The notes beneath the pieces are model-generated. The model was not told the DNA's origin and ran no database searches. It saw only the letters and a list, made by a program, of their open reading frames with translations. A stretch of DNA of 64,000 nucleotides from Nitrospira sp. (GTDB lineage: Bacteria; Nitrospirota; Thermodesulfovibrionia; UBA6902), in assembly GCA_016784355.1 (NCBI GenBank), contig JADHUV010000004.1, positions 48,201 through 112,200 on the forward strand, given 5' to 3'. The translations under genes were made by a program, and so were the position numbers. Positions 4,291 through 39,505 of this stretch are shown in pieces. Every line of letters begins with the position of its first letter. Position 1 is the first letter of the stretch.

Positions 4291-5361
4291 ATGAATAACA
4301 GTATAGCCTGCTTCATCTCACCCCATGGATTTGGTCATGCGGCGCGCTTAACGGCCATAATGGAGGCCCTTCGTCGGTTAGACCCTTCGATAAGATTTGA
4401 GATTTTTACCCTTGTACCATGCTGGTTTTTTGCATCGGCAGAGATCGGGGAGTTTGGCTATCATGAGACACTCACAGATATAGGCCTTGTACAGGACTCT
4501 CCCTATCATGAGGACTTATCCGCTACCGTTAAAAAACTAGAGGTTTTCATGCCGTTTGATCCTGTTGTTGTGAAGGGTCTGGCTGATAAACTGCGTTTGT
4601 CCGGGTGTCGTCTTGCGCTGTGCGATATCTCGCCTTTAGGAATTGCGGCGGCGGCAGAGGCCGGGATCCCTTCAGTATTAATTTCCAACTTTACTTGGGA
4701 CTGGATATATGAGGGGTACGAAGATGGCGGACTTCTTCCCTATGTAAAGCAAATGAAGGAGTGGTTTGACCGTGCAGATTATTATATCCTGGCTGAACCT
4801 TACTGCGAGGCGCAGCCGGCCGATATAATTGTCCCACCCGTGAGCCGCAGTTTTAAGGCCGGTGCAGGTTATATCAGGGAGCGGCTCGGCAGTCCTGCTG
4901 ATGCAAAGGCAGTTATGATAACGATGGGCGGTTTTCAGGATGACTATGGTTTTTATGATATGATCAGCGATTATCCTGATATATACTTTGTTATACCTGC
5001 TGATAAGCCTGGCTCAATGCCCCTGTCAAACTTGATTACTCTCCCTTTTCACTCTGACCTGCATCATCCTGATCTGGTTAATGCAGTGGATGCTGTAGTC
5101 TGTAAGCTCGGCTATAGCACACTTGCGGAGATATATCATGCGGGTGTGCCATACGGCTATATCACCCGCCCCGCTTTCCGTGAGTCAGCAAAATTACAGG
5201 AGTATGTGGAGAAGCAGATGAACTGTATGCAGATAGATCTGAAGGAGTTTAAAAGCGGCGGGTGGCTCAGACAGGTGCGCAATCTTGTGAAAATGCCCCG
5301 GATTCAAAGGGATGTGCGCAACGGAGCAGATCAGGCGGCAGAGTTTATCAGCCGTATCTGA
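4291..5361 (+). CDS. Glycosyltransferase, MurG/UDP-glycosyltransferase-like GT-B fold
   Basis: N-terminal HGFGHAARL motif. 356 aa. Confidence 0.55.
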   Translation: MNNSIACFISPHGFGHAARLTAIMEALRRLDPSIRFEIFTLVPCWFFASAEIGEFGYHETLTDIGLVQDSPYHEDLSATVKKLEVFMPFDPVVVKGLADKLRLSGCRLALCDISPLGIAAAAEAGIPSVLISNFTWDWIYEGYEDGGLLPYVKQMKEWFDRADYYILAEPYCEAQPADIIVPPVSRSFKAGAGYIRERLGSPADAKAVMITMGGFQDDYGFYDMISDYPDIYFVIPADKPGSMPLSNLITLPFHSDLHHPDLVNAVDAVVCKLGYSTLAEIYHAGVPYGYITRPAFRESAKLQEYVEKQMNCMQIDLKEFKSGGWLRQVRNLVKMPRIQRDVRNGADQAAEFISRI

Positions 5362-15195: not shown

Positions 15196-16901
15196 GATTT
15201 CCGCTCCATCAGAATGAAGGAAAACTCATAACCTTCCGCATCCTTCCATCCGCGGCCTGCAGCGCTTGGACTTTCGCTTATGTACAGGTTCCACTCCGCA
15301 ATATTGCGCGACAGGGACTGGTGGAACATATCAATATGGCGCTGCTCCAATGCCCAACCCTTTATGTGAAAGAGAAACCACTCCTGCTCGTCTATACTTT
15401 CGAGCACAACACCATCCGGGATGCTTCCGGTTATTGCCTCAAGAAAACCGGTCATCACCTGCTGCCTGTGCATAAATACTCTTTCAACTGCATCTTTCCG
15501 ATGTTTCAGACTGGTATTTTTGTCTTCCATTGCATCCCGTTTAGCAACAAGTTTTTGATATTCAGCGCTTTTATTAGACATTTTTTCATTTGCGCGCGCA
15601 ATTGTCCTGACCTCACCCTGCAGCGTTTCCGTCTCTGCCATTATTTTCCCCATAGATCTACTATGAGATATTTCGTAGAAACCAATAAATACAAGCAGAC
15701 ATGCCGTTGCAATATTAAGCCAGGCCATGGGCCGCTTATGCATGGCCGGCAGAGGAGGTTCTCCTGGAAGAAAGGGCGCAAGAAGATGAGATGACATACC
15801 CAGATAATGGCGCGAGCTCCCCAACAACGCATACCATGACTCTTTTTGAGACAACAGGGTACAGTCAAATTCTCCATTCAGTGAGAGGGGAAGCACTTTT
15901 CTATTCATCCGCTGCGCAAGGGCCGTCCCTAGATATTCTTTGTTAGGGTGTGATCCGGTAATGACCATTGCCTCCATATCCGCGGTAAGAACGGGACGGC
16001 ATAGTTCTGCAAGATCCTCCTCGCTAACAGAAATATTACAGGTCCTTCTATAGGCGCTTTGTGTGATCTCACCCTGTTCAATACTGGATACAGTAATATG
16101 TCCCTGCTCTATTTCCACCAGGCATTGTGCAGCAGGGGAGAGGGGCAGAAGTGCCGCGCTGGTCAATGCTTCAGGATATATTCTTTCCAGCCGAATTTCG
16201 CTGTTTCTCAGCGCCTGAAGCCATTCCCTCCCGATAGTTTCGTGTATTGCGCAGCATAATGTAAGCCCCGGCTGACTGCCTGCGGTTGTCGTGCTGTCTG
16301 ACCAGCCGCAATTCAGAGAATCTTCCAGGAGATGGAGCCGTTCCTGAATAGCAAGGCAATCTTCCAGCTGCTCACGATCAATAAAACCTTTTTCTATTGC
16401 TATTTCTCCAAAACGGGCAGGCAGCGTACCCCCGTGTCTTCCTGCGTAGCTTTCTTGCTTATCAAGCGTATCCAGTATTTGATCACGCTGAATGGCATCT
16501 ATATGTCCACGGGCTATCATTACCCAGCCGATATTGGGAGGAAGGGCAAGATCCTGTGTAAGCTCGTCCATTTCCCACCGGACCAGTTCTTCAATCTGTC
16601 CGGGAGCAATCTTCTTCCCCTGCGGAACGGGCAGTTTCAGCAGGGCAGGAACTGCGCCGGCACATACAAGCACAGCTTCTTTCGGTAAGGAAAGCCCTGC
16701 CTGTTTAAGTTGGCTCATTACCTGTTCAAGCGCCTGCCGGGCGACTACAGACCGGGTTTCTGCTGTCCCTTCAACCCGGAGAGATTCACCTTTTTTGGTT
16801 ATTATCATTGCCTTCAGGCCGAAGCCGTTTGCTTCAAGCGCCAATAACCGTTTTTTTTTTCTTTTTGTTAGCAGAGAGACGTGTTTAAGTATATTTTTCA
16901 T
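15192..16901 (-). CDS. gspL: GspL-like protein, a PilM-type cytoplasmic domain fused to a PilN-type TM/periplasmic domain
   Basis: 569 aa with a central transmembrane segment and a coiled coil after it. Codons 14-17 contain an A10 tract. Confidence 0.6.
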   Translation of the reverse strand: MKNILKHVSLLTKRKKKRLLALEANGFGLKAMIITKKGESLRVEGTAETRSVVARQALEQVMSQLKQAGLSLPKEAVLVCAGAVPALLKLPVPQGKKIAPGQIEELVRWEMDELTQDLALPPNIGWVMIARGHIDAIQRDQILDTLDKQESYAGRHGGTLPARFGEIAIEKGFIDREQLEDCLAIQERLHLLEDSLNCGWSDSTTTAGSQPGLTLCCAIHETIGREWLQALRNSEIRLERIYPEALTSAALLPLSPAAQCLVEIEQGHITVSSIEQGEITQSAYRRTCNISVSEEDLAELCRPVLTADMEAMVITGSHPNKEYLGTALAQRMNRKVLPLSLNGEFDCTLLSQKESWYALLGSSRHYLGMSSHLLAPFLPGEPPLPAMHKRPMAWLNIATACLLVFIGFYEISHSRSMGKIMAETETLQGEVRTIARANEKMSNKSAEYQKLVAKRDAMEDKNTSLKHRKDAVERVFMHRQQVMTGFLEAITGSIPDGVVLESIDEQEWFLFHIKGWALEQRHIDMFHQSLSRNIAEWNLYISESPSAAGRGWKDAEGYEFSFILMERKS

Positions 16902-17947
16902 TAATCTATCTCCAGTACTAGTGACGGCGGCGACATTCCGGGAAATATATTGAATTTTAAATATATATTTTTTCCTGTAGCGTCATAAACAACGTTTCCA
17001 TCCGTAGGCGTAACTCCAATTACTTTATCATTGTCAATCAAAACAAGAAGATAGGTGCCAAAAGGAATACGCTCACCTGCTGGAATGGTAATCTCAGCTG
17101 AATCAGTTACCTTATGCGTCATAAGGATATTACTTTTAGGCCCCACAGCGATGGGTTTCTGGTCAGCACTGCGATAGGTAACAGGCCATTCAGATTGCCC
17201 CCCGCTCGTAGTATTTTTATATACAAAAAGTGCAATAAAGTAGCCATTAGTATTAGTGATAATGGATGAGCCTTTATTGTTAAGTGTAATATTGATCTGA
17301 TTTACACCGATACTCCAATCATCGGGATATATATCTGCCGAGCGGTCGGGAAAAGTAGGAGTTATAGTTGATGCTGGTTGCAGGGAGATCTGATATTCGA
17401 TGGCCCCTGCCGGATCAGTAACAGTAAAATATCCTCCCCATGCGTCACGCAGTTCAGGAGTTGAGTCAAGTAGCGTCACAAGAGAAAGTGGGCGGCGGAA
17501 GCCCTTAAACATTGTCAGTTCTTTACTGTTCCCGCCGGCAACAGCCACTTTAACTGATTTATAAACGGTCGCTTCTGCGTAACGATAGTAAGGCTCTTTT
17601 TCGCCGTAGGGCTGCTGTACAGTGGTGCCATCAACTGCCCTATGCAGGGGCCAAAGAGGATATGGTGAAGATATCTCAGGCAATTTCCCATTATCAGCGA
17701 CATATCCTGAAAGGAGCGGTTGTTCTCCATCATATGTTATACGTATAACTGATTTATATATTTGATAAAGTTTCTGTACCGAAGCATCATAACGCTGCTG
17801 GTTGTCATTATTTTCAACAAAAACCATGGAAATGCTCGCCAGCACACCGAGAAGGAAAAGGACCAGCACCATTTCCAGCAGAGTAAATCCCCTCATTCCA
17901 CTAATATTATTTATACCGTTTGTCATGTTAGTTCCTAGAATATACAA
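16901..17947 (-). CDS. Large pseudopilin/minor pilin with a prepilin N-terminus
   Basis: GFTLLEMVLVLFLLGVL class-III signal, and cleavage motif G/FTLLE. Confidence 0.75.
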   Translation of the reverse strand: MYILGTNMTNGINNISGMRGFTLLEMVLVLFLLGVLASISMVFVENNDNQQRYDASVQKLYQIYKSVIRITYDGEQPLLSGYVADNGKLPEISSPYPLWPLHRAVDGTTVQQPYGEKEPYYRYAEATVYKSVKVAVAGGNSKELTMFKGFRRPLSLVTLLDSTPELRDAWGGYFTVTDPAGAIEYQISLQPASTITPTFPDRSADIYPDDWSIGVNQINITLNNKGSSIITNTNGYFIALFVYKNTTSGGQSEWPVTYRSADQKPIAVGPKSNILMTHKVTDSAEITIPAGERIPFGTYLLVLIDNDKVIGVTPTDGNVVYDATGKNIYLKFNIFPGMSPPSLVLEID

Positions 17948-20709: not shown

Positions 20710-22383
20710 TTAATCTGATGGGGGCAGTGCTGAAGCCTTTGATAAGATAGAGAGTGTGGTTATAATGTATATTGCTCTTACAAGCAACTCGATAGGAAGT
20801 TTACCATTATATTTTCCAAGATCAGGATTAATTTTATCGTGCATCCATTTATCTGTCATCATGTAAACTGTCATTTCATCAGCAGCAGCCCCCCAGTCTA
20901 TGCAGCGGTCTAATTCTGATGAAGATGTGCCGGCGAAGTTCAAATAATAAAGGTTGAAACTTTTCTGCAGCAGGATTCGAATATATTTTTGAAACAGGGC
21001 TTTGCCGTCTATCTCAGACTTGCACTTTATCCTGTAATAACTGGCTACAACTAAAACCCATGCGAAGAGTTCATTGCTGACCGCATGGTGCAGCTCGCTG
21101 ATACTCTTTACCGATAATAAATGCTCAAAGTCTGCAATCCCGGATAATCTCATGTTGGGAAATTCAGTAGCGCAGAGCCACTTATCCACCCTGCCGGGTC
21201 CGCTTGAAACTGAAATATTATATTTAGTCTTATGCCCGATATTATGGTACAGATTAATAGGCTCGCTGTGCACTATACCAACAGATGCAAGCTGCGCCAG
21301 ATCTCCGATATTCACCAATGCCGCCTGGGAAAACTCTTTTTCCTGCAGCCCATTATCATTTAGATAAATCAGATAAGACTCAGCAGGAAGGTAGCAAATC
21401 GCATAGTATGCATGACCCGGATCTATATTTACTTTACCAAGGCAGCTGAGCTGCGCGCCTTTTAAAATCATTTTGTTCATTGAACAAATATACCTGTTGT
21501 TATTAAAAACCAGAGGCTCGGGAAGATAGCTTTCAAGAGATAGGTCAGATTTAGCCAGCCCGAGATAGGCCATCCATCTTGCGTCATCTTCCAGATTTTC
21601 AACTCTCATGGATTCTGAATCCAACCCGGCTCGATCTATCAGAAATTTCATGACTAAGGTCCTGTTATCCTCCGTAGTGATTATAAGAGAGCGGCCTGCC
21701 TCTTTAAAAGTTTTTATGCCGGAAGATAATTTAAGCCGTACAAGCTCGTCTATATTCTCAAAAGTCTCTATGGTTTCATAGTTGAACTTTATATCCGCTA
21801 AACGGGACCGCGGACTTGCAAGGACTTTATTAATCTGAACTCCCTCAATCAGGGCCATGGAAATTTCCCAATAATTAAATGCCTTTTTTTGATAACTGCT
21901 CACTATTCTGTCATAAGGATTTCGCCTTATATAGGGTTCAGGATTTAAAAATAAATCAAGCATGCTAATGCCCTTAAGGGCATACGGGTATTTTCTGGTC
22001 ATATTGTATAAAGCTAAAGTTACGCCAAACCGCACTCCTCTTTCCTGATGCTTTAATGCTGTAACCAAATCAGGTATGGCCGACTTGCCTATCTCAACTA
22101 AAGTATCTGCAACAGTTTCAGTAAAGCCTCCTCCCCAAAATTGAGTACCGTTCAGGGAAGCTATCAAAGCAGAAATTATCTTTTCTCTGTCCAGTAGTTC
22201 CAATTCCTGAAAATGGCTTTTAATGAGTTGGTTTAATTCATTTAGAGCGTCAAGACGAGAGGCGGTATATAATTTATCGATTAGCGCCTCTAACTCCAGT
22301 AGCACTGAATTAATATCAATTGAGTCAACAGGATTGGCGCACTTATTAATTGCCGATACTTTTTCGTTTATATTTTTATTCAA
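20710..22383 (-). CDS. Large hypothetical protein with N-terminal HEAT-like repeats
   Basis: 557-aa ORF in AT-rich DNA with no catalytic motif recognised. Confidence 0.45.
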   Translation of the reverse strand: MNKNINEKVSAINKCANPVDSIDINSVLLELEALIDKLYTASRLDALNELNQLIKSHFQELELLDREKIISALIASLNGTQFWGGGFTETVADTLVEIGKSAIPDLVTALKHQERGVRFGVTLALYNMTRKYPYALKGISMLDLFLNPEPYIRRNPYDRIVSSYQKKAFNYWEISMALIEGVQINKVLASPRSRLADIKFNYETIETFENIDELVRLKLSSGIKTFKEAGRSLIITTEDNRTLVMKFLIDRAGLDSESMRVENLEDDARWMAYLGLAKSDLSLESYLPEPLVFNNNRYICSMNKMILKGAQLSCLGKVNIDPGHAYYAICYLPAESYLIYLNDNGLQEKEFSQAALVNIGDLAQLASVGIVHSEPINLYHNIGHKTKYNISVSSGPGRVDKWLCATEFPNMRLSGIADFEHLLSVKSISELHHAVSNELFAWVLVVASYYRIKCKSEIDGKALFQKYIRILLQKSFNLYYLNFAGTSSSELDRCIDWGAAADEMTVYMMTDKWMHDKINPDLGKYNGKLPIELLVRAIYIITTLSILSKASALPPSD

Positions 22384-22685: not shown

Positions 22686-23309
22686 ATGCCCCATTTACTT
22701 GAAATATATTCCGATTATATATGACCCTGGTGCTACTTCATTACCGGGCGTATTGAACGACTGAATAAGGAATATGAACTTGATGTCCGCTGGAGAGCAT
22801 TTCCTCTGCATACTGAAACACCTGAGGCGGGGACTCTTTTGAAAGATCTCTTCTCTAACTTCAGTAGCGATGACCTGATGAATATGAAACGCCGCATGAA
22901 AGAAGCAGCGGCTGAAGCTGGTTTGCCTTTTGGTGATCGGGATCGGACTTTTAACAGTCGCCTTGCACAGGAATTGGGCAAATGGGCTGAAAGAAATAAT
23001 AAGGGAGATGCATTTCAACACGCGATATTTAAGGCCTATTTTTCAGAGGGGATAAATATCGCCAAAATTCCCGCTCTTATAAATCTAGCTGCCTCAATTG
23101 GTCTGCCCCGTGAGGAAGCCGAGGTAGTACTTTTGCAAAGAACATTTAAAACAGATGTGGATGAGGATTGGTTGCTTTCGCAAAAGAACGGGATTACCGC
23201 TGTTCCCACATTTGTTATGAATAAAGAAAAATTAATCGGAGCGCAGCCATATGAGATGCTGGTAAATTTTATGGAAACGCAGGGCGTGCAGAAGAGAATT
23301 ATTTCATAA
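22686..23309 (+). CDS. DsbA/FrnE-family thiol-disulfide oxidoreductase, predicted selenoprotein with UGA-Sec at 22722-22724
   Basis: ATG at 22686 reads MPHLLEIYSDYI-[TGA]-PWCYFITGRIERL. This runs straight into the 22839..23309 ORF. The TGA sits where the first Cys of the DsbA CPWC motif is expected. A hairpin lies at 22737-22757, 12 nt downstream. Confidence 0.7.
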
Positions 23310-26820: not shown

Positions 26821-28692
26821 ATGAGGAAGTTCAGCACACGAAATTTATTGATTATTAATAAGGCCCGGCAATGCCTTTTTGTTATAGGTCTGTTATTGGC
26901 CTTCACAATACCGGCATCCGCCTCAATCCCCGGCAGCATCAATTATCAGGGATATCTATCTGACGGCGCTGGTAATCCGGTCAGTGCTACTGTCAGCATT
27001 ACATTCTCTTTGTATAATGTAGACACGGCCGGAACATTTCTATGGACCGAGGCCCAATCGGTTGCAGTAATCAGCGGAGTCTTTGATGTAACGCTGGGGA
27101 ATCCTGCGAACCCATTGCCTGCAGGATTGTTTGAAGATCCTTTATGGCTTGGTATTAATGTGGCCGGTGATGGCGAGATGGTTCCGCGAAAAGCCCTGGC
27201 CAGTGTTGCATTTTCCTTCAAGGCCAATGATGCGTATACGGTCGGCGGCCGAACTGCGGCCAGCCTGGATCAGGCTGATCATGTATTGGATACAGGTAAT
27301 CCGCATCACATAACTACAGCACAGCTTCCTGCTGATATCACGCGCGACAGTGAGATTATGCCCATTGTACTGCTAAGAGATGGCCCCGGCTCTACACTTG
27401 ATGCCGATACAATTGATGGTCTTGATTCGAGCGATTTTTTTAATACAGCCAGTGATTATGGCCGGTATAAAGTTGCTAATGATCTCTACGAAGGAACCTC
27501 CACCCTGAGCTTTAAGTATGTTAATACGACCGGAGATACAATGACCGGCAATCTTAGTGTTATGGAACGTGTTGGGATTGGCATAGAAACTCCTTTGGCC
27601 AGGCTTCATGTACTGGAAAGCAATACGTCAGCTTCTGGACTGTTTGAAACCGGAGTCTCACAAAACTGGATCGGGTTTTCTACTTCCAATGGTTATCAAG
27701 GTTACGCCGGAGTCTTTTCCGGTGCTGATGATATAGAGATAGGGACCGGTCTGGGTAATACTACGGGCAGTGTAAATCTGGCCATAGGTACAATTCCAAA
27801 GCTCACGGTTAATCAGGAAGGCAATGTCGGCATTGGAACAACAAGTCCTGTTTACGGTCTGGACGTGCGCGGCAGTTCCAGCGGCTATCTTGGTTATTTT
27901 TTGAATGACAATAATTCAGTCGGGACAAGCAGTGATGCCTTTGGTATATTCGCCAGCGGTGATGCCTACGGCACAGTGACCGGCGAGGCTGTAGGTGGTG
28001 CCTTTACCGCTTACGGAGGAAGTTCGCAGGGGACTGCCTATGGAGTTCAGGTTTTCACAAATGCATATGGTTCCGCTGATGCGTATGGGGTCTATAGCGA
28101 TGCTACCGGCGGCTCAACGACCGGCAGAGAGTTCGCATTTTTTGGAAGAGGCAATAGTATATTTACCGGTAAGGTTGGAATCGGTACTGATGATCCTCAG
28201 GCAAAACTGCATGTTGATGGTCAGATAAAGATACAGGGCGGCTATTATGCAAATGGTGTGCTTTCATCCTTTGGTTACCACGTCAATGATTGTGACGGAG
28301 TAACTGAAAAGTTTGTACATATGGCTGCCCAGGGCGGCGTGGACTACGGCCTGTGCATGGAGAAAAATGAGCGTCCTGCTCAGGTATGGGGTGATGCATC
28401 TGAGACCTGTAAAATGCAGGGAAAGCGCCTGCCCGATTATGTTGAGTGGAGGAAGGCCTGTGACGGCTATACGTCTGGAGCGCCAGGCACACCGGATCCA
28501 TTTTATTCCAACATAACCGGCAACTATGAATGGGCTTCGTCTCGTCCCTCTGTACTTAACAGCGATGGAATGCGCGGACCATCTTCTGTATTAGCAGGGA
28601 TGCTAAGCTGCGAGACAACGTATGCAGACCGGGTCGATAGAGGCAATCATGTTGATAGCAGATATCAATACACCTTCCGATGCGTTCGATAA
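26821..28692 (+). CDS. Secreted protein with fibre-like VGIGT-x-P-x-AxLHV repeats and a C-terminal FGE-sulfatase / C-type-lectin-fold domain
   Basis: Signal peptide present. Repeats are VGIGIETPLARLHV, VGIGTTSPVYGLDV and VGIGTDDPQAKLHV. The C-terminus reads GKRLPDYVEWRKAC...YEWASS...FRCVR. Confidence 0.6.
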   Translation: MRKFSTRNLLIINKARQCLFVIGLLLAFTIPASASIPGSINYQGYLSDGAGNPVSATVSITFSLYNVDTAGTFLWTEAQSVAVISGVFDVTLGNPANPLPAGLFEDPLWLGINVAGDGEMVPRKALASVAFSFKANDAYTVGGRTAASLDQADHVLDTGNPHHITTAQLPADITRDSEIMPIVLLRDGPGSTLDADTIDGLDSSDFFNTASDYGRYKVANDLYEGTSTLSFKYVNTTGDTMTGNLSVMERVGIGIETPLARLHVLESNTSASGLFETGVSQNWIGFSTSNGYQGYAGVFSGADDIEIGTGLGNTTGSVNLAIGTIPKLTVNQEGNVGIGTTSPVYGLDVRGSSSGYLGYFLNDNNSVGTSSDAFGIFASGDAYGTVTGEAVGGAFTAYGGSSQGTAYGVQVFTNAYGSADAYGVYSDATGGSTTGREFAFFGRGNSIFTGKVGIGTDDPQAKLHVDGQIKIQGGYYANGVLSSFGYHVNDCDGVTEKFVHMAAQGGVDYGLCMEKNERPAQVWGDASETCKMQGKRLPDYVEWRKACDGYTSGAPGTPDPFYSNITGNYEWASSRPSVLNSDGMRGPSSVLAGMLSCETTYADRVDRGNHVDSRYQYTFRCVR

Positions 28693-33253: not shown

Positions 33254-33771
33254 CTATGGGATCCTTTGCAATCATTATGATGCAATATTAAAATTTCGTC
33301 AATGAGATGAGGTAGTTCAGATTTGTATTGGCAGACATGGTAAGGAGTCACGGTTGTTCAGTGTGTGACTCCTGCATATAGAGCCAGCTGATATTGCTAT
33401 GTATTTTTATTAAAATGAATAGTGAAGGCTTATACAAGTGTCAGCATTTTTTCTCGAGAGATAATGCAATAGGATCATCATCGGCAAGTGCCTTTTCCAC
33501 CACATCCAGCGTATCACAAAACTGACTCCATCTCTCTTTTCTTTCTGATACTGATTGGATAGCATGTCTGGTTTTAGCGTAAACTCCTGAATGACCCCAT
33601 GCAGCCTTTTTCTTCCCATCTGGCAAAATTTAAATCCCTGCTGCTTATCATGATCTGATTCGTCCTTGAAAAAAGATGCCGCTTTAAGAGCAAAGCGTAG
33701 ATGGGCAATGGTCAGAGGTATTATTGATGCAAAGCAGCCGGCAAAAGGGTTGATCTGTCTCTCACCAATCT

Positions 33772-34461
33772 TTATTTAAGTATCTTAGATTCAGGAAATT
33801 TTTTCTGCCATTTCCCCCACGGAATATCTTCAGAAGAAATCTTTAAAAGCATTCGTCCGAAGTATTTTCCCTGAATACCTTTGAGCCCTTTTCTTTCAGG
33901 ATACCAGAGTGTAATGCTTTCCTTGTCGTACAGCACAAAGGTGTTATCGTACGTCCATCCTGAAGGTGCAATCGTTAAAATCTGTCCATCAATCTCGCGG
34001 CTGTACACAGCCGCCAGGTCTGCCAGTGGTCAATAACCGACGGCAATAGGTTTTGAACCTATTGCACTGTTTGCAATTTCATGACCCCGAAGTTTCTGTA
34101 CAGAATAAGCTTGCGAGCTTGCGCCTTCTTCTATTCCAATGACTCGAAGATCGTCGGGTACGCTTTTTTTGTCATCACTTAATCCTGTTGCATCAAGAGT
34201 GGAGAATGCATCTTTTCCCATGCCGTATTGAAAGCGCTCAGGCTTAAAGCCGATTGATTTAGCTTCTGTGATATCCCACTTGTACCCTGTCTGGTCAATG
34301 ATATAAGTTCTGCTGCCTTCTTGAACTACCGTAGTAGGGTATAAGTTTTCATGTGAACAGCTGATGAGACTTATGACTGCTACAATAATAAATGTTATTT
34401 TTTGTAGGGTGATCATTATTGCATCTCCTTTTACAAGTACTACTAAGATTTTACGGATCAA
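33772..34461 (-). CDS. Lipoprotein, possibly DUF3179-like, predicted selenoprotein with UGA-Sec at 34030-34032
   Basis: ORFs 34030..34461 and 33772..34008 share one frame and are separated only by a TGA: ...KPIAVGY-[TGA]-PLADLAAVYSREIDGQ. A perfect 7-bp hairpin GCGGCUG-UGUA-CAGCCGC lies 15 nt downstream, at 33997-34014. Lipobox LISCS. Confidence 0.5.
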
Positions 34462-34694
34462 TATAATCTTAGCTCATTTTACGCCGACTTTCACGCAGCA
34501 AGATGGCACGTCTAATAAAGCGGAATGTTTGTTTTACTTCGACATTCGTAATTCGTCAATCTATATTCGATATTCTCCTTTTTTCATTTATTATCTGAAA
34601 CTGTTTGAAACAGCGAATAATGAATATCGAACAAGGAATCTCGAATGTCGAAGTGTGTTTATTTCCACATTTATACTACGAAAATCGATATTCG

Positions 34695-38402: not shown

Positions 38403-39002
38403 ATGAATTATTTTTTTAAATCTGGCGATATCCGTAACTACAGCATCATATTGTTCTTGATCCTATTGACAGCATTTGCCGGTCCGGCCGATGCCGGGGA
38501 GAAAGGTTCGGAAATGGCAGCGAATCATCCCTGGATAGGAAAAAAGGCCCCTCTTTTTGAACTGAAAACAATAGAGGGAAGGCATGTATCACTTTCTGAT
38601 TATCTTGGTAAAAAGAATGTAGTCCTGCACTTTGCGGCTACATGGTGACCTTTCTGTCGTGCGGAGGCTCCGCATCTGGAAGCACTTTTTAATGAAGGGC
38701 ATGCTGACCTTGCAGTATTTGTTGTAGACGTTAAAGAGGATAAGGATCATGTAGCAAAGTGGGGAAAGAAGATGGGCTATACACTTCCGATCCTTATGGA
38801 TACCGATGGGAAGGTAACAGCATCTTTTGCCCCGCCGGAAGTCCTGCCTGATATGCCTCGTGATGAGGTAGTGATCGCGGCAAATATTATTATTGACCGC
38901 CATGGTGTTATACAGTTCTTCGATCTGCTGGATTCCAGGAATTTTGATTCCAAACTGCTGAAGCTTCAAAGCCGGTTAAAGATGCTTCGGGCCGCAGAGT
39001 AA
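38403..39002 (+). CDS. Periplasmic TlpA/ResA-like thioredoxin-fold oxidoreductase, predicted selenoprotein with UGA-Sec at 38646-38648
   Basis: Signal peptide present. Reads ...VVLHFAATW-[TGA]-PFCRAEAPHL and runs in frame into the 38772..39002 ORF. The TGA sits where the first Cys of WCxxC is expected. A hairpin lies at 38660-38674, 11 nt downstream. Confidence 0.7.
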
Positions 39003-39010
39003 GTTTTACA

Positions 39011-39505
39011 ATGCAAATGCTCAAGATATGCCTGATTATCCTTTCGGTTATTTTCATGGCTGCATGTGAAGGTGAAACCCCGAAATCCGCTGTTGATAGT
39101 CCTAATGTTACGGTTGAGAATCCAGCACGTATAGATATTGCTCCGGGGGAGTCTGCCGAGGTTGTGGTAGCGATTACAGTTGCTTCAGAATATCATGTGC
39201 AGGCCAACCCTTCTGCTGACGAGTTTCTTATCCCTCTTACAATTGTTTTTGATGAACATGACGGACTGCATATTGGTAAACCGGTATATCCCCCGCCGGA
39301 GAGGCACCATTTCGAGTGGAGTCCGATCGAGCTTTTTACATACTCCGGCAAGGTTCTTCTGCCATTTCAGCTTAGTGTTGATGAATCAATAACAGCTGGA
39401 GATCGGTTGCTAACAGGAACACTTCGTTATCAGGCGTGCTCCTACTTTATCTGTCGACCGCCGAAGCAGGCAGATGTTCGGCTTGCGGTACGTATTGTTC
39501 AGTGA
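39011..39505 (+). CDS. DsbD N-terminal (alpha-domain)-like lipoprotein
   Basis: Lipobox FMAACEG, and the C-terminal Cys pair in RYQACSYFICRPP that is typical of DsbD-alpha. Confidence 0.55.
   Translation: MQMLKICLIILSVIFMAACEGETPKSAVDSPNVTVENPARIDIAPGESAEVVVAITVASEYHVQANPSADEFLIPLTIVFDEHDGLHIGKPVYPPPERHHFEWSPIELFTYSGKVLLPFQLSVDESITAGDRLLTGTLRYQACSYFICRPPKQADVRLAVRIVQ

Follow-up and report, generated by a model that had tools for sequence, protein, structure and literature searches.

A short single-repeat DUF3179 gene in a Nitrospira sp. contig with a conserved in-frame UGA that is very probably decoded as selenocysteine

A stretch of 64,000 nucleotides (nt) from Nitrospira sp. (contig JADHUV010000004.1 of assembly GCA_016784355.1, positions 48,201 to 112,200 of the forward strand), here called the window, carries on its minus strand a gene of the DUF3179 family that is interrupted by a single in-frame UGA codon. 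This codon is very probably read as selenocysteine (Sec), and it is followed within the coding sequence by a hairpin of the kind described for bacterial selenocysteine insertion sequences (SECIS). In window coordinates, the locus is made up of the following elements:

33772..34416, minus strand: complete gene for a putative selenoprotein, a short single-repeat DUF3179 protein; 214 codons plus TAA (128 amino acids (aa), Sec and 85 aa)
34425..34430, minus strand: Shine-Dalgarno-like AAGGAG, 8 nt 5' of ATG 34416, from direct reading of the sequence
34357..34416, minus strand: predicted signal peptide with lipobox L-I-S-C (Cys20), MITLQKITFIIVAVISLISC, by sequence pattern only
34030..34032, minus strand: in-frame UGA read as Sec, residue 129, motif Y-U-P-L-A
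33997..34014, minus strand: predicted SECIS core hairpin GCGGCUG-UGUA-CAGCCGC, within the codons Ala-Ala-Val-Tyr-Ser-Arg and beginning 15 nt past the UGA
33994..34017, minus strand: hairpin lengthened by two outer pairs (CU/AG) beyond a G·G mismatch, a predicted fold
33775..34029, minus strand: post-Sec coding part, 85 codons, PLADLAAVYSREIDG…SGWTY…FVLYDKES.TLWYP…W..W…P

The frame runs from ATG 34416 to TAA 33774-33772, with TGA 34032-34030 as its sole internal stop. Around that stop the minus-strand letters read ATT GCC GTC GGT TAT TGA CCA CTG GCA GAC CTG GCG GCT GTG TAC AGC CGC GAG, giving the peptide IAVGY-TGA-PLADLAAVYSRE and, in wider context, SKPIAVGY-TGA-PLADLAAVYSREIDGQ. The original prediction, made from the letters alone, had described two collinear minus-strand open reading frames (ORFs), 34030..34461 and 33772..34008, split by the TGA alone, and this is what we find: they lie in a common frame and no further stop separates them. 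Their joining into one protein likewise stands; the predicted length of 229 aa, which comes from a far-upstream TTG start, does not. ATG 34416 is the likely start and 214 aa the likely length of the product: this ATG has AAGGAG 8 nt before it, and the fragment deposited for the N-terminal half, MBC8413722.1, begins at the same Met (MITLQK). GenBank records the product of the window by its N-terminal half only, as a 128-aa 'DUF3179 domain-containing protein' (MBC8413722.1 / MBL7048336.1). GTG 34008, with which the second ORF (78 aa) starts, is a Val codon within the hairpin.

When Cys is put at the TGA, the joined protein scores 97 bits (E 1.8e-27) against Pfam DUF3179 (PF11376), for which the cut-off is 27 bits, in agreement with the family suggested in the original prediction. 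The match spans positions 17-148 of the 292 of the profile, so that the two-repeat architecture of the model is not found in the window protein; NCBIfam has no model matching it. A search with the 85-aa C-terminal part against 1.84 billion representatives recovered 525 family proteins at E<=1e-3, uninterrupted homologues included, with the long forms matching the query twice. One protein of the same library (P0123, 1587 aa) has six separate stretches that match the query, and would thus be a DUF3179 protein of many repeats. When 23 homologues were aligned with the window protein, Cys occupied the UGA column in each of the 21 that contain Cys, both the short forms (CPLA, CPLV, CPLI, CPLL or CPPV) and the long two-repeat forms (mostly CPLC, with one CPLT and one CPLA). 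By this alignment, the UGA takes the place of the first Cys in the family motif CPL[C/T/A/V], as the original prediction had supposed for a CPLC-type motif; thus, both the profile search and the inspection of the Cys column that had been proposed came out in favor of the supposition. The second Cys of CPLC is not present in the window clade. Elsewhere in the alignment Y104, E113, P130, R140, G153, D164, W171, G183 and L190 are invariant, and the core motifs HE.xN, [C]PL, Y.R, SG, D..T.S.W and W..W…P line up with those of the family members.

A tblastn search of species-representative genomes yielded 80 related loci, all in metagenome-assembled genomes, from Nitrospirota/Thermodesulfovibrionia, Desulfobacterales, Syntrophobacterales, Deferrimicrobia and other groups; each match reaches residue 212-214 over both halves. 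With the window there are 81 sequences, which we call the window clade. TGA stands at the Sec column in all 80 loci as in the window, a Cys codon in none, and 80/81 sequences have precisely 85 codons following the TGA. The exception (L029, CP070632.1, from a Nitrospiraceae metagenome-assembled genome) has a further in-frame stop some 33 codons past the Sec codon, in place of the conserved Tyr of FVLYD (TFVL*DRETE). It is the only disrupted C-terminal part among the 81, and represents either a pseudogene or an assembly error. Directly after the TGA, Pro at +1 and Leu at +2 are invariant in 81/81, yet every synonymous codon for them occurs; such a pattern is what translation across the TGA leaves. 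More generally, the seven codons from the TGA to the first possible restart (GTG) are under protein-level selection. The residue at Sec+3 is more variable, being V in 59 sequences, A in 13, Q in 6, S in 2 and M in 1, with A in the window.

These patterns bear directly on the possibility that the TGA is a real stop, leaving a 128-aa protein followed by a dead downstream ORF or by an ORF translated separately from GTG 34008. In its favor, the annotation of both the gene callers and GenBank stops with the 128-aa N-terminal part, and a GTG-initiated ORF of 78 aa is indeed present. However, a pseudogene or a pair of genes is hard to reconcile with a TGA kept across diverged species together with intact downstream codons, with selection on the protein between TGA and GTG, or with Cys-form homologues that are uninterrupted single proteins; moreover, the GTG is itself part of the hairpin, no GGAGG-type Shine-Dalgarno-like sequence is evident 5' of it, and no orthologue was found in which the two halves are independently conserved. 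We consider this alternative very improbable.

The same truncation recurs throughout the databases. A protein search returned 127 homologues, nearly all of 123-130 aa, that end exactly at …AVGY, …AAAY or …AVGF. Four longer ones among the 127 have W at the Sec position (YWPLV[DN]LAAVY) and one later match has G; in all, W is found at this column in P0002, P0003, P0016, P0017, P0274 and P0278, and G in P0129. The best explanation of such entries is that automatic gene calling read the TGA under code 4 or 25, apparently a recurrent artefact in the annotation of Sec genes. Taken at face value they would speak for UGA being read as Trp or Gly under an alternative code (code 4 or 25), or by near-cognate readthrough or a suppressor, but this is scarcely credible: TGA ends 11/27 window ORFs of at least 250 codons and is thus an ordinary stop, which excludes a reassigned genetic code, the homologues have Cys rather than Trp or Gly at the column, and a SECIS-type hairpin with RNA-level constraint comes after the codon.

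That hairpin is a perfect 7-bp stem closed by a 4-nt UGUA loop, with the G-U of the loop at nt 27-28 counting from the U of UGA; it lies at 34014-33997, just where the original prediction had drawn it, 15 nt past the UGA. Alone, the core hairpin has a predicted free energy of -12.2 kcal/mol (z -3.8), with 1/200 shuffles as good, and the 42 nt from the UGA fold at -17.2 kcal/mol with the two added outer pairs. These outer pairs are less well kept, with 17-38 found in 70/79 distinct sequences and 16-39 in 47/79. The published model of the bacterial SECIS calls for a loop of 3-9 nt, a stem of 4-16 bp, a UGA-to-loop distance of 16-37 nt, a minimum free energy (MFE) no higher than -7.5 kcal/mol, and a G at position 1 or 2 of the loop, as a rule with G or U after it (PMC13188914). 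The window hairpin falls within all these limits—4-nt loop, 7-bp stem, 22-nt spacing, and G at loop position 2 followed by U—so that the SECIS prediction that had been suggested as a check gives a positive result.

Selection on the RNA itself can be read from synonymous codon choice across the 81 sequences. The entropy of synonymous codons falls to 0-0.5 bit over the hairpin codons (+6 to +10, A-A-V-Y-S), whereas the four-fold and six-fold degenerate codons on either side keep 1.6-2.0 bits. The codons retained within the hairpin are:

Ala: GCG in 66/73
Ala: GCT in 79/81
Val: GTG in 81/81
Tyr: TAC in 81/81
Ser: AGY in 81/81, never TCN

Judged from these synonymous sites, the hairpin is under constraint at the RNA level. 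Among the departures from the consensus, eight sequences have an Ala-to-Thr change (ACG) and in 7/8 of these the Arg codon is CGT, placing an A-U pair for G-C at the base of the stem; four others have GCC, all with CGG and then C, for which a shifted GCCG/CGGC pairing with one bulge is possible. The hairpin of the window clade is too invariant for a covariation test, and it is for this reason that we rely on synonymous-site entropy together with covariation in a sister clade.

This sister clade of short forms comprises 79 metagenome loci (P0128-like; L081-L155), in which the codon at the Sec column is TGA in at least 75/79 and TGC in one. The architecture and length of its proteins are those of the window protein, but it differs from the window clade in the register of the hairpin, in having an added invariant Cys (GLTC), and in an insertion of its own (LLPGEPGYP). 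Its hairpin, GGCUG-CCGUGUA-CAGCC, has a 7-nt loop and lies on the same L-A/T-A-V-Y-S-R codons, three nt further upstream. Here the covariation is clear: 98.4% of cells are paired, there are 20 double changes (G-C to A-U in 16 sequences, C-G to G-C in 4), and 0/500 shuffles reach the score. Some of these compensations alter the amino acids on both sides (Ala/Ser to Gly/Thr). Six loci (L081, L082, L084, L104, L107 and L113) have Sec short-form DUF3179 paralogues in tandem pairs, in the same orientation and about 700-880 nt from one another, and every paralogue has its own UGA and hairpin; such tandem pairs are a further difference from the window clade.

Both Sec and Cys forms are present in the sister clade. 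Of four Cys-form relatives whose genes were read as DNA, L160 and L162 (the genes of P0272 and P0273, with TGT at the column) retain a hairpin resembling that of the window, CGGCUG-UGUA-CAGCCG, on the T-A-V-Y-S-R codons, and in L161 and L124 the hairpin is degraded. Most simply, L160 and L162 may be seen as cases of recent Sec-to-Cys conversion in which the SECIS survives as a fossil.

Several results weigh against the reading of the gene as Sec-decoded. The persistence of the hairpin in 2/4 Cys-form genes means that it is not strictly coupled to the UGA. Within the window clade, covariation does not rise above the shuffle control, the hairpin being nearly invariant, and the four GCC…CGG-C members need a bulged pairing, which in L069, the one folded, is not the MFE structure. 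No Rfam family matched, whether the whole window was scanned at gathering thresholds or the locus at E<=10. A Pfam scan of the 20 larger window ORFs found no selA, selB or selD domain, and ARAGORN found no tRNA in the window. The neighborhoods of the 81 loci show no conserved operon or universal partner. Finally, structural relatives are wanting: a Foldseek search with the model of the clade member P0002 against the PDB gave no match below E 0.3, and sequence searches of the PDB, with the single protein or a profile, gave nothing below E 0.5. Set against the conservation of the UGA, the equivalence of the Cys and Sec columns and the constraint on the hairpin, these points leave us with a probability of roughly 93% that the gene 34416->33772 (minus strand) is a DUF3179 gene decoded with Sec. 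The Sec machinery of the host may be presumed only from the two other UxxC Sec genes in the window.

By the standard bacterial pathway, decoding would then proceed as follows. As the ribosome nears the UGA, SelB carrying Sec-tRNA(Sec) would bind the mRNA hairpin 15 nt downstream, with the UGUA loop exposing G27-U28, and Sec would be delivered to the A site in place of release factor 2. The Ala-Ala-Val-Tyr-Ser-Arg codons would serve the protein and the RNA alike because the hairpin lies within the coding sequence. In the product, Sec would stand for the only cysteine conserved family-wide, the first Cys of CPLC, and since the mature protein is without Cys, it would form a lone reactive selenol outside the cytoplasm, on a domain confidently predicted to be all-beta.

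A parallel may be drawn with the fdhF SECIS of Escherichia coli, whose loop carries G23-U24. Both it and the bSECISearch consensus share with the window hairpin the placement of a stem-loop in the coding sequence 3' of the UGA and a small apical loop with G then U. The window hairpin has spacing and stability inside the limits of the bacterial model but is without sequence similarity to the fdhF element; its loop G-U is 4 nt more distant from the UGA and no bulged U is predicted.

DUF3179 as such has already been given as a prokaryotic selenoprotein family, with the motif UxxC/T, in two reviews (PMC9312934, PMC13188914), which credit it to Zhang & Gladyshev 2007 (PMC1976440). From the order of the tables, the listed family is probably the 'OS_HP1' of that work (3 Sec and 2 Cys sequences). 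The earlier description of the gene as belonging to a poorly characterized selenoprotein family is thus right as to a Sec-containing DUF3179 family, but this is not an undiscovered one. Our literature search found no statement on the function of DUF3179; the reviews place it beside metal-handling proteins, among them the mercuric transport protein MerT, an E1-E2 cation-transporting ATPase and a mercuric reductase-like metal-binding protein (PMC9312934, PMC13188914). A look-up of GenBank accessions yielded no tie between the example proteins of the reviews and the window clade. The published DUF3179 selenoproteins resemble the window protein in their Pfam family, in the Sec at the first position of the CPLC-type motif, in the stem-loop past the UGA in the coding region, and in coming from Sec-rich anaerobic deltaproteobacterial lineages. 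However, in place of UxxC/T the window gene reads U-P-L-A, the last position being V, A, Q, S or M across its clade, and the protein is a short form with an extra N-terminal beta element. The canonical long DUF3179 proteins (P0165, P0169, P0174, P0191, P0195) share the core HE[IV]xN…[C/U]PL…Y.R…G…SG…D..T.S.W…G…L…W..W…P and an N-terminal signal or lipoprotein leader, but are 330-430 aa long with a second, Cys-less repeat and usually a second Cys (CPLC), whereas the window protein has one repeat and no mature Cys. Thus, what is described here is not a new family; it is set apart by the short, single-repeat exported form, the U-P-L-A/V motif, the absence of a partner Cys, the near-exclusive use of Sec, and the SECIS in two registers.

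The protein features give some indication of where such a selenol would act. The leader MITLQKITFIIVAVISLIS-C (…AVISLIS-C20) fits the lipobox pattern [LVI][ASTVI][GAS]C, and the window protein is probably lipid-anchored in its host organism. A lipobox-like motif is found in 10/81 clade members, the remainder having ordinary hydrophobic leaders; hence the label of lipoprotein suits the window gene and its Nitrospirota relatives but not the clade at large, in which lipidation would be lineage-specific. On the strength of the leaders the protein is likely to be exported throughout. The mature protein contains no Cys at all in 80/81 members, the window included. An AlphaFold2 model of P0002 (predicted local distance difference test 93.2, predicted template modeling score 0.88) is almost all-beta, and the Sec position is where a strand ends and leads into a short helical turn. 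The sole partial matches of low root-mean-square deviation (rmsd) in the PDB are Rieske-type domains (template modeling score 0.30-0.33, rmsd 4.1-8.3 Å), which are not significant (E > 2, probability <= 0.28). A thioredoxin-fold thiol:disulfide oxidoreductase was considered and rejected, the model being all-beta, with no second Cys and no thioredoxin-family match in Pfam or among PDB folds.

In the window, the following flanking matches, both weak, are compatible with a monocistronic unit:

34623..34651, minus strand: sigma-70-like promoter match TCGACA-17-GATATT, about 200 nt 5' of the ATG, by consensus scan only (9/12)
33670..33697, minus strand: terminator-like hairpin and T-run, about 75 nt past the stop codon, by consensus scan only

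Its neighbors are an old yellow enzyme (OYE)-type flavin oxidoreductase upstream and a TrkA-type K+ channel downstream. Elsewhere in the clade, about 10/81 loci have, immediately upstream and in the same orientation, genes for an extracytoplasmic function (ECF) sigma factor and a zf-HC2 anti-sigma factor (L005, L009, L012, L019, L035, L043, L063, L067 and L079 with ECF sigma then zf-HC2; L054 with the anti-sigma gene only), which suggests that stress controls expression in these lineages of Desulfobacterota; no such arrangement is present in the window. A pyridine-nucleotide disulfide oxidoreductase is encoded somewhere near in about 10/81 loci.

The window holds two further selenoprotein genes. 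The one at 38403-39002 (plus strand; TGA 38646-38648) encodes a signal-peptide-bearing AhpC/TSA-Redoxin protein (TlpA/ResA-like) with the motif W-U-P-F-C, has a 7-bp hairpin with a GGC loop beginning 10 nt past the UGA, and is next to a gene for a DsbD_N-domain protein (39011-39505, plus strand). The other, at 22686-23309 (plus strand; TGA 22722-22724), encodes a DsbA/FrnE-like protein (Pfam DSBA, E 2.6e-30) whose motif, Y-I-U-P-W-C, lies close to the N-terminus. Five large ORFs of 341-623 aa have no Pfam match at the thresholds applied: 26821-28692 (plus), 20710-22383 (minus), 52238-53263 (plus), 16901-17947 (minus) and 4291-5361 (plus).

As to the role of the protein, the guess that we favor is a redox or metal(loid)-binding site built on the selenol and working with an external partner, not with an internal resolving Cys. 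Of the two specific forms this might take, the first is that the selenol is a catalytic redox nucleophile, as in a peroxide or disulfide/persulfide reductase-like enzyme, recycled by an extracytoplasmic reductant pathway, e.g., of DsbD/TlpA type. The replacement by Sec of the invariant Cys of the family, the CxxC-like CPLC of the long forms, the invariant GLTC Cys of the sister clade (which could be a resolving residue), the ECF sigma and zf-HC2 genes upstream of some members, and the proximity in the window of the Sec-TlpA-like and DsbD_N genes, 4-5 kb off, are all in keeping with it. Against this, a resolving Cys is missing from the whole mature protein in the window clade, the predicted fold is not thioredoxin-like and has no PDB structure match, and the neighborhood is not conserved across loci; accordingly, a catalytic role is only a tentative proposal, if a serious one. 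The second form, which we regard as somewhat less likely still, is that the selenolate, with the nearby conserved His112, Glu113 or Asn116, is a metal or metalloid ligand engaged in binding, trafficking or sensing rather than turnover. It draws on the spacing of HE..N…[C/U]PL[C] conserved over the family, on the Rieske-type metal-binding domains as best low-rmsd fold matches, and on the grouping of DUF3179 with metal-handling proteins in the reviews; yet those fold matches fall short of significance, metal-resistance genes are not consistently adjacent, and His112 is not invariant in the wider family.

A bolder view would hold that the short-form clade is an essentially obligate-Sec, Cys-free extracytoplasmic protein whose lone selenol performs chemistry beyond the reach of a Cys form. 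It draws on the presence of Sec in all 81 species-level genomes and on the mature proteins that lack Cys in all but one of them, and we hold it to be improbable. If true, it would point to, e.g., a single-selenol peroxidase or persulfide/metalloid handling in the periplasm of sulfate reducers and Thermodesulfovibrionia, induced in some lineages by the ECF sigma/zinc-finger anti-sigma pair, and the protein would belong to a functionally new class of exported selenoprotein instead of being another UxxC oxidoreductase.

At the level of annotation, these findings correct a systematic error, whereby the protein has been recorded as a stub of 123-130 aa (e.g., MBC8413722.1) or with W/G in place of Sec. 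They also offer a clean example of dual protein and RNA coding, in which six codons (A-A-V-Y-S-R) are frozen as a SECIS and the sister clade uses a shifted register. For the family itself, they document a large, almost exclusively Sec-using, Cys-free clade of short forms inside a known but uncharacterized selenoprotein family.

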